A stretch of 19,473 nucleotides of DNA from a bacterium (GCA_030648815.1 JAUSHA010000029.1:1-19473), one strand, 5' to 3'. Positions 12,423-13,160 are shown, counted from the stretch's first letter. Notes: a model not told the origin generated them from the sequence alone. Translations and numbers: made by a program.

Positions 12423-13160
12423 TTATTCTAGAAATAACTCATAATATTCTTTAAATTTTCCTTTATATTTTATATAATCTTCAATAAATTTCTCGCACGC
12501 TCTTTCACCACCCGTGGTTTCTAACATAAATTCTCTATCTGTTACTGATGGAAAATTCGGCTTTCCTAAATAATCAGAAAAACTTGACCATTTATACTCT
12601 TTCGCAAATTTTATAGCTTTCTTTATGTCGCGGATGCCCCTTTCTTTCCATTTCGGCTCTATCAAGGAAACTGAATTAGCATGAATATACGCAAAAACAA
12701 TTTTTAACTGTTCGTCAGTCTTGATGAGGACTGACAAAAATCTGTTCTGAAAAACGTAACCCTTGCGGCCATGTTTTAAATTAAAATATCTAGCATACCC
12801 GCCGCCGAATTTCTTCATAAATTTCACAATTCCACCATCTTTAATCTGTCTTATTAATAAATGAATATGATTCGGCATCAAACAAAAGGCTATAATTTCC
12901 ACAAGTTTATCTCGTAAATCAGTTTGGGCGGACGTCGGGTCTCCGCCCAAACTCTCTGTTTTTTTGAGATATGCCTTCATTCTGGAGCGATCCCTTCGAC
13001 GCTTTAAAATCTCTACCGGATTTATTGTATTAAATTCGTAAATAGAAAAAATCCCCCGATAATAGTCATTGGTATCTTTGAAAAGTTTATTATCATCAAT
13101 GCCCCTTAAAATAACGTGATAAATTCCGTCGTTAATAAATTGTTCTTTTCTGTATGGCAT
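12423..13160 (-). CDS. REP-associated tyrosine transposase (RAYT / TnpA_REP; IS200-like HuH Y1 transposase).
   Basis: N-terminal GIYHVILRG, HuH motif CLMPNHIHLL, GYVFQNRF (cf. WQxRF), catalytic-Tyr helix AYIHANSV. Flanked by inverted REP copies. Start assigned to the ATG (MPYRKEQ...) at 13160. The track's upstream start (MLGGRRVSAQTHN) reads through REP copy 3 and is probably not real. Confidence 0.78.
   Translation of the reverse strand: MPYRKEQFINDGIYHVILRGIDDNKLFKDTNDYYRGIFSIYEFNTINPVEILKRRRDRSRMKAYLKKTESLGGDPTSAQTDLRDKLVEIIAFCLMPNHIHLLIRQIKDGGIVKFMKKFGGGYARYFNLKHGRKGYVFQNRFLSVLIKTDEQLKIVFAYIHANSVSLIEPKWKERGIRDIKKAIKFAKEYKWSSFSDYLGKPNFPSVTDREFMLETTGGERACEKFIEDYIKYKGKFKEYYELFLE
12922..12952. 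repeat. REP-like palindromic element, copy 2, lying in frame inside the RAYT coding sequence.
   Basis: GTTTGGGCGGA-CGTCGGGTC-TCCGCCCAAAC, a perfect 11-bp stem in the same orientation as copy 1. It translates on the minus strand as ...ESLGGDPTSAQTD... in the linker between the N-terminal strand and the HuH motif. Confidence 0.75.

Follow-up and report, generated by a model that had tools for sequence, protein, structure and literature searches.

A putative REP-associated tyrosine transposase (RAYT) gene and three identical copies of a repetitive extragenic palindrome (REP) were analyzed in a 19,473-nucleotide (nt) stretch of bacterial DNA (GCA_030648815.1 JAUSHA010000029.1:1-19473; this whole stretch is called the window below). 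The gene occupies positions 12423 to 13160 on the minus strand and encodes a Y1/HUH protein of 245 amino acids (aa), beginning MPYRKEQ, as judged from the open reading frame (ORF), the Pfam match and an identical protein, P0001. Its stop codon lies at 12423-12425 and its start codon is the ATG at 13160, which was taken as the real start because P0001 is on record with 245 aa at 100% identity. The upstream neighbor is ychF, which encodes a GTPase (13199-14266, minus strand), and the downstream neighbor encodes a serine hydrolase (11838-12380, minus strand) that is syntenic in two of the related loci, L084 and L086. The three genes are tightly packed on one strand, and hairpins fill the 38-nt and 42-nt gaps between them. 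The sequence of the 5' hairpin is also open in frame with an upstream ATG at 13199, which overlaps the ychF stop codon (13161-13199, minus strand); reading from it adds a spurious 13-residue extension, MLGGRRVSAQTHN, and the homolog P0008 has a similar extension, LGGRRVSAQPHN, ahead of its own MPYRKEQ.

The 27-nt palindrome TTGGGCGGACGTCGGGTCTCCGCCCAA occurs exactly three times in the window with no mismatches, at 12393-12419 (plus strand), 12924-12950 (plus) and 13170-13196 (minus), that is, after, inside and before the RAYT-like gene. No copies were expected from 200 shuffles that preserved dinucleotide composition, and no fourth copy is found elsewhere in the 19.5-kb window. The 5' copy (13166-13198, minus strand, core 13170-13196) occupies the 38-nt gap that separates the RAYT ATG from the ychF stop codon; it ends 9 nt ahead of this ATG, and its loop has the opposite orientation to that of the other two copies. 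The 3' copy, with a 12-bp stem (12390-12422, minus strand, core 12393-12419), follows directly on the RAYT stop codon and ends 10 nt before the next gene. The 5' and 3' copies are thus mutually inverted, and the 5' and internal copies are 100% complementary over 31 nt.

The internal copy is a 33-nt hairpin at 12921-12953 on the minus strand, with a 12-bp stem, AGTTTGGGCGGA/TCCGCCCAAACT, and a 9-nt loop. It is read as 11 codons, 70 to 80 (SLGGDPTSAQT), with neither a stop codon nor a frameshift, and it lies 18-28 residues ahead of the HuH motif. The original prediction had placed a third, in-frame copy of the palindrome at 12922-12952, in the linker before the HuH motif and with the catalytic motifs intact. 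That description agrees with ours in each respect: the interval falls within the hairpin, the match is exact over 27 nt, and the translation given there, ESLGGDPTSAQTD, is right. The HuH motif is H98-I99-H100 (12861-12869, minus strand), and the catalytic tyrosine lies 60 aa from H98 in the motif Y158-I-H-A-N-S (12672-12689, minus strand; family consensus YIHxNP). Among 120 homologs H98, H100, Y158 and N162 are invariant. Directly upstream of the hairpin-encoded loop is a basic helix, residues 51-70, with the pattern RRxxRxxxKKxLKK (12951-13010, minus strand); its Lys codons are the source of the A-rich 5' flank of the hairpin.

Folding calculations support the hairpin in both RNA and DNA. For RNA, as the original prediction had suggested checking, the 101-nt region round the internal copy reaches a minimum free energy of -29 kcal/mol (z -3.5) in a structure that includes the 12-bp hairpin. 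As single-stranded DNA (ssDNA), the 46-nt stretch round it folds at -13.8 kcal/mol (z -7), and the opposite strand folds nearly as well. When the larger segment 12900-13215 (minus strand) is folded as a whole, the minimum-energy structure has the 5' copy perfectly paired with the internal copy over 31 bp (-104.6 kcal/mol, z -9.4); provided that the two copies lie on a single strand, this duplex would enclose the start codon together with the first 70 codons. A search against known RNA families gave only a T-box match, which at 21.9 bits against a threshold of 93 bits is attributable to chance.

The identity of the protein was examined by sequence and by predicted structure. It matches the Pfam family Y1_Tnp (E 4.8e-11). 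A Foldseek search with the AlphaFold model gave as best match 4ER8 (4ER8_A), the Escherichia coli RAYT bound to a REP hairpin (E 8e-7), and the transposases of IS200, IS608 and ISDra2 ranked next. The sequence similarity is weak: the NCBIfam model REP_Tyr_transpos gives 45.1 bits against a cut-off of 80 and covers residues 83-164 only, the NCBIfam IS200 model gives 16.9 bits against a cut-off of 55, and 4ER8 was not reached by a profile search of PDB sequences. The AlphaFold model, built from 120 sequences, has a predicted local distance difference test score (pLDDT) of 80 and a predicted template modeling score of 0.78; it replaced an earlier model from 34 sequences (pLDDT 57) that was uninformative, as was its fold search. 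In the model, the only internal segment with pLDDT below 50 is residues 73-79, located between the basic helix and the strand that leads into the HuH motif. The window protein probably works like a RAYT and is closest to the RAYTs, yet it represents a divergent family. No homolog was found in viral contigs, and a phage origin is unsupported.

A protein search returned 1,657 relatives, and every named host belongs to the Patescibacteria. The homologs are about 241-245 aa long and carry a like segment at the same place, for example LGG[DN]PTSA, RDPVSV or GGPSSA; those with 59-81% identity to the window protein have equal length and the same segment. For the family analysis, 79 genomic loci and eight close orthologs were scanned by script, and a neighbor-joining tree was built from 90 genes. 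An internal copy that matches the flanks of its own locus was found in 70 of the 90 loci (78%). On the tree its root state was inferred to be present, with absences scattered and at least 17 changes; the loci scored as absent often have a decayed remnant or a diverged hairpin, and a few have a shortened linker.

The internal zone of each gene was compared with four control coding zones of equal size in the same gene. Strong hairpins are present in the internal zone of 39 of 82 genes and in 0-2 of 82 in the control zones. Likewise, exact words of 12 nt or more common to the internal zone and the gene's own flank were found in 61 of 82 genes for the 3' flank and in 50 of 82 for the 5' flank; for the control coding zones the corresponding number is 0-1 of 82, and for comparisons between different loci it is 21 of 410. 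The 5' and 3' flanks share such a word with each other in 71 of 82 loci. The location of the element is also regular. The modal distance from the conserved YEF motif to the hairpin center is 79-82 nt, 39 of 47 internal hairpins are centered on codon position 2, and the linker is 159 nt long in genes with a strong hairpin versus 158 nt in those lacking one. Outside the gene, the family medians place the start of the 3' hairpin 6 nt past the stop codon and the end of the 5' hairpin 18 nt before the ATG. The internal palindrome is an old and positionally fixed third member of a three-hairpin layout that characterizes a large RAYT-like family of Patescibacteria. Variants of the internal element were seen in three loci: at rel +205 in L046 and rel +207 in L054 (21-bp stems) it is an inverted hairpin doublet of about 46 nt, resembling a REPIN, and in L055 there are two separate hairpins, at rel +222 and +259; in each case the frame is unbroken.

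These results decide the first of two options in the original prediction, that the hairpin is a recent in-frame insertion tolerated by the enzyme. An insertion specific to the window genome is next to impossible: the three copies are indeed 100% identical over 27 nt, but the syntenic orthologs L080-L088 all carry the segment, as do the homologs at 59-81% identity, and the root state is present. The alignment of orthologs proposed for finding an insertion of about 11 aa gave no length difference and a segment shared at that position, and the equal linker lengths argue in the same direction.

The sequence changes in the hairpins follow the pattern expected of a nucleic acid structure. The stems are wholly different between loci, yet they are paired. 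When 50 internal hairpins are aligned without gaps, each of the 12 stem pairs proves to have changed on both sides, and the covariation exceeds that in 500 of 500 shuffles and in all slid controls; these 50 hairpins were chosen for pairing, and the unbiased evidence is therefore that of the control-zone comparisons for hairpins and shared words. By contrast with the stems, an apex of the form GAG-NN-C(C/A)G-NN-CTC is common to all three positions, with 85-96% conservation per position, and the outer flanks are A-rich and T-rich. In the conserved reading phase this apex encodes x-x-Pro-x-Ser. Residues 71-80 form the most variable block of the protein (2.51 bits, versus 0.4-2.1 for all other 10-residue blocks), and the only conserved residues in the block, Pro75 and Ser77, are those encoded by the apex. 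Flipped orientations of the hairpin alter the peptide and preserve the palindrome. Because the stems track their own flanks while the peptide is hypervariable, the element evolves as nucleic acid, with the peptide as a by-product; the constraint on the internal element concerns its structure and not the peptide. A GTAG (or CGTC) foot tetranucleotide was not found among the columns with at least 50% agreement in a center-aligned profile of 143 hairpins, an indirect negative, as the stem feet were not re-aligned.

The same data bear on the idea that the segment is ancestral coding sequence resembling a REP by chance or through constraint on the protein, which had been named as the outcome that would undo the original prediction. 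The recurrence of a G-x-P-x-S pattern in the homologs fits this idea. However, the P and S are encoded by the apex, whose conservation is just as high in the non-coding copies that flank the gene. The remainder of the segment is hypervariable as protein and matches the locus's own flanks as DNA, and flipping changes the peptide while keeping the palindrome. With the internal sequence co-varying with its own flanks in the most variable block of the protein, this explanation can hardly be right.

Comparison of the close orthologs shows a tendency toward joint change among the three copies of one locus. All three copies in L084 carry a loop substitution of GAGACCCG to GAAACCCG (Asp to Asn in the protein), and all three in L082 read ACCTCC in place of ACGTCC; in L086, the internal and 3' copies have the same two arm mismatches. 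L080 has a private compensatory pair, G to T and C to A, in the internal copy, by which Gly becomes Val and Ala becomes Asp while the stem stays paired. The gene order is conserved among these orthologs, at 73-81% identity, as ychF-RAYT-serine hydrolase or ychF-RAYT-HI0933-like, and L083 and L087 share a second conserved context. The ychF-RAYT adjacency itself is kept in L084 (76% identical) and L086 (75% identical). Across the family, the 5' and 3' copies are in opposite orientation in 28 cases and in the same orientation in 16 (p about 0.1).

The layout was also found in more distant paralogs. The gene of L003 (2690-3355), whose protein is 45% identical, has internal and 5' copies. L006 (7782-8465, 30% identical) has an unrelated, AT-rich palindrome, AACATT[C/G]AATGTT, which occurs exactly three times in 14.8 kb where 0.03 are expected. 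These copies are located 23 nt before the ATG (7747-7759), in frame about 25 residues before the HuH motif (7957-7969), and 21 nt after the stop codon (8486-8498). L006 represents a second large subfamily with 1,864 relatives at about 30% identity. Three of its members, L092-L094, have the flanking pair only and at most a degenerate palindrome at the homologous codons. The palindromes seen in this subfamily (L006, L092-L095) are AACATT[C/G]AATGTT and TGTTAGAC...GTCTAACA. One metagenome-assembled genome (MAG), CAYIJU01, contains at least six loci of divergent RAYT-like paralogs (L001, L003, L008, L014, L034 and L051), each with its own hairpin sequence; such a number is unusual for a genome of this size and unlike the usual single-copy RAYT, and contamination of the bin is possible.

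Copies at a distance from the gene are few: 17 were found in 897 kb of the relatives' flanks, concentrated in L058 (as doublets), L010 and L043, and a metagenome scan for hairpins of the window type yielded three copies that had no RAYT in their vicinity. L058 has no internal copy, yet it has the densest dispersed doublets, with seven matches in a 9.7-kb contig, mostly intergenic (including hairpins at 653-670, 2089-2117, 3003-3031 and 8492-8535); this single case hints at a link between absence of the internal copy and proliferation. Several dispersed copies are in frame within other genes. In L089 a copy at 1134-1156 lies in the SecA gene, encodes LGGNPTSAQ and is read in the same phase as in the RAYT; in L043 two copies 8 nt apart, GGPSSPQNRGGPSS, lie in the enolase gene (9253-9298); and in L062 a copy at about 4630-4650 lies in the DprA gene.

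The second option in the original prediction was an autoregulatory arrangement, and autoregulation by the internal hairpin is the reading that we prefer as plausible. By analogy with E. coli TnpA-REP and IS608 TnpA, the HUH enzyme would recognize the hairpins in single-stranded DNA. With one such site inside the gene, either the enzyme or the stable hairpin itself, as DNA or as mRNA, could act in cis on the gene, and the most probable outcome would be a restraint on expression of the RAYT-like gene. Contacts between enzyme and hairpin, or template switching between nearby palindromes, may then keep the three copies alike. Taken in this broad form, as an internal cis site for the gene's own enzyme or hairpin that restrains expression, with contacts or template switching keeping the copies alike, the proposal has in our judgment about an even chance of being correct. 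The narrower proposal, that the hairpin is a selected cis site for a domesticated HUH transposase and serves in negative feedback by binding or nicking, or in copy-correction catalyzed by the enzyme, is more tentative.

Several observations weigh against a regulatory role. The gene and its flanking hairpins can be kept without an internal copy: twenty of the 90 loci have no matching one, and most of these retain 5' and 3' copies that match. In the second subfamily an internal copy is present in only two of five loci, L006 and L095, both of which have the full set of 5', in-frame and 3' palindromes. The loop of the internal copy is opposite in orientation to the 5' copy in 17 cases and the same in 18 (19 and 20 relative to the other flank), and this random orientation means that no strand-specific reading of the loop is conserved. 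There is no excess of G:T over A:C mismatches on the sense strand, although the numbers are small and confounded by codon composition. Homogenization is not absolute, as a single loop position varies among the three copies of L088. Finally, the retention of the copy and its compensatory and concerted changes could be explained by palindrome self-correction and conversion from the flanks alone.

This last point leads to the strongest alternative, in which the internal copy is a functionless in-frame REP, a tolerated passenger in a permissive loop, kept there by mutational drive. The drive might be conversion or template switching from the adjacent copies, self-correction of the palindrome, or repeated enzyme-mediated re-insertion at the same site. 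We regard this as a strong rival, though less probable than not. The in-frame hairpins in SecA (L089), enolase (L043) and DprA (L062) indicate that in-frame accommodation is general. The loss of the matching copy from 22% of loci that kept the gene and flanks, the random orientation, and the hypervariability and low model confidence of the encoded loop all suit a passenger. It also agrees with the published view of comparable insertions: in the RAYT genes of subclass 2.4, in-frame REPs were read as tolerated and as peripheral to the modeled catalytic core (PMC6006769), a view that likewise counts against regulation.

On the other hand, a passenger accounts less well for a position and codon phase that are fixed throughout the family and for retention in 78% of loci, and the layout recurs with an unrelated palindrome in a paralog of 30% identity. 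Copies elsewhere are rare (17 in 897 kb) and show no positional conservation, and streamlined genomes with a deletion bias should purge neutral DNA. In four loci (L005, L012, L024b and L036) the internal hairpins have private, perfectly paired stems of 16-18 bp unlike either flank, which fits a passenger less well; these are given as illustration only, because the stems were defined by pairing and a test of private differences is thereby biased.

An RNA element that acts independently of the enzyme is improbable. Here the hairpins would be structures in a ychF-RAYT-hydrolase transcript, and the internal hairpin, alone or together with the 5' copy, would lower translation or mark the mRNA for a double-strand RNase, uncoupling RAYT expression from that of its neighbors. 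The close packing of same-strand genes with hairpins filling the gaps, the family-wide nearness of hairpins to the stop codon and ATG (medians 6 and 18 nt), and the potential 31-bp duplex enclosing the start codon are all compatible with this, and REPs are known to act as RNA elements in 3' untranslated regions (PMC3733652). However, any hairpin would do for such a purpose, which leaves the family-wide apex unexplained. The opposite orientation of 5' and internal copies, needed for the full duplex, is not favored (17 versus 18), the small mismatch sample shows no G:U signature on the sense strand, and on that strand the internal hairpin is not followed by a U-tract and no terminator was called in a scan of loops of 3-8 nt.

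Less probable still is a role as a substrate for recombination or transposition, with the internal copy as an alternative end or recombination site that permits on/off inversion or deletion of the gene, or mobilization of a sub-segment. Each pair of copies is at once a direct and an inverted repeat, the 5' and internal copies being complementary throughout their 31 nt, and HUH enzymes cut and rejoin DNA at such hairpins (PMC3479197). Yet in about 90 loci all full-length matches are collinear, from query residue 1 or 7 through 227-245, and no inverted or internally deleted variant of the gene was found among them. The synteny of close orthologs indicates that the unit does not move, and paralogs within one MAG are at most 64% identical to the window protein and so are not fresh copies.

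Four specific mechanisms were examined and set aside. Programmed -1 frameshifting was considered in view of the window's A7 run, 6 nt ahead of the hairpin, but conservation of this slippery run does not extend to L080, L082 or L084. An intrinsic terminator within the gene is not supported, as there is no sense-strand U-tract; none was called on the minus strand in a scan limited to loops of 3-8 nt, which could not score the internal hairpin because of its 9-nt loop. The T-rich tract beside the internal hairpin is on the antisense side and derives from Lys codons. Sequestration of the start codon by a 7-bp helix, seen in the long-range fold, was dropped since the complementary bases are not conserved in L084 or L085. 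A selected duplex between the 5' and internal copies was dropped given the flat orientation statistics. Elsewhere in the window, a 420-aa ORF adjoining ychF (14413-15675, minus strand) has several Cys/His pairs (CASCNG, HGHKCELCG) and no Pfam match at E <= 0.01.

If the internal hairpin is indeed a selected cis site, this would be the first case of such an enzyme's recognition element as a conserved and co-evolving part of its own coding sequence, and in a deep bacterial radiation. For questions on the function of RAYTs and REPs, and on the matching of each enzyme to its own REP family, the window family offers a compact natural system: three putative recognition hairpins within about 800 bp, one of them bound to a reading frame, with stems specific to the locus and an apex common to the family, in hundreds of independent loci. 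The layout is suited to the study of enzyme-hairpin co-evolution, of concerted evolution of short palindromes, and of possible self-regulation by a domesticated transposase.

Among known systems, the insertion sequences of the IS200/IS605 type (IS608, ISDra2, IS200) share the Y1 HUH fold and have subterminal hairpins on both sides of the transposase gene. In IS200, hairpins restrain expression of the transposase. The window family differs in that the whole unit has not multiplied, that relatives show synteny around it, and that its palindromes are perfect and often inverted; we know of no IS200/IS605 element with an end-like hairpin conserved inside the tnpA reading frame. Short palindromes in frame within functional genes, where they encode surface loops, are reportedly known as the Rickettsia palindromic elements described by Ogata and coworkers in 2000. 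Intragenic REPs have also been catalogued (Di Nocera et al. 2013, PMC3733652). The gene-dense genomes of Patescibacteria resemble Rickettsia in this respect, with palindromes settling in frame in essential genes (SecA, enolase). The insertions in these known cases are sporadic and lineage-specific, whereas the internal copy in the RAYT-like genes is positionally conserved over a deep family and tracks its flanks.

The E. coli RAYT, with its REP-BIME elements, is said to have been characterized by Nunvar in 2010 and Ton-Hoang in 2012. This enzyme, TnpA-REP, is the best structural match to the window protein (4ER8; Messing et al. 2012, PMC3479197), with a HuH motif and a tyrosine motif of the Y-I-x-x-N-P type, and as in the window family its cognate hairpins bracket the gene, mostly inverted, at a syntenic and probably vertically inherited locus. 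The sequence similarity is weak, however, and the window family has 35-40 additional residues ahead of the HuH motif and a helical extension at the C-terminus. It shows no GTAG guide, and it has an apparently low REP copy number in the DNA examined and several divergent paralogs per MAG.

The closest precedent is RAYT subclass 2.4 (group 4 of the RAYTs), from Cyanobacteria and Bacteroidetes, in which REP-flanked genes also have REPs inside the coding sequence that leave the reading frame intact (Quentin et al. 2018, BMC Genomics 19:475, PMC6006769). In that subclass the REPs are of variable number, length and sequence and lengthen the HuH-Y spacing, whose median is 88 aa. The window family, in contrast, usually has one copy, fixed 18-28 residues before the HuH motif, and a HuH-Y distance of 60 aa; this copy, for which an ancestral origin is inferred, is retained by 78% of loci and varies in concert with the flanks. 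Moreover, the Patescibacteria lie outside that survey, and their REPs show no GTAG foot and have a conserved apex. Searches of the open-access literature turned up no earlier description of an internal copy that is positionally fixed, ancestral and co-varying, and none of the window family in Patescibacteria. In-frame REPs in RAYT genes are thus already known from subclass 2.4, at a different position, and what is new in the Patescibacteria family is the fixed internal copy that co-varies with its flanks.

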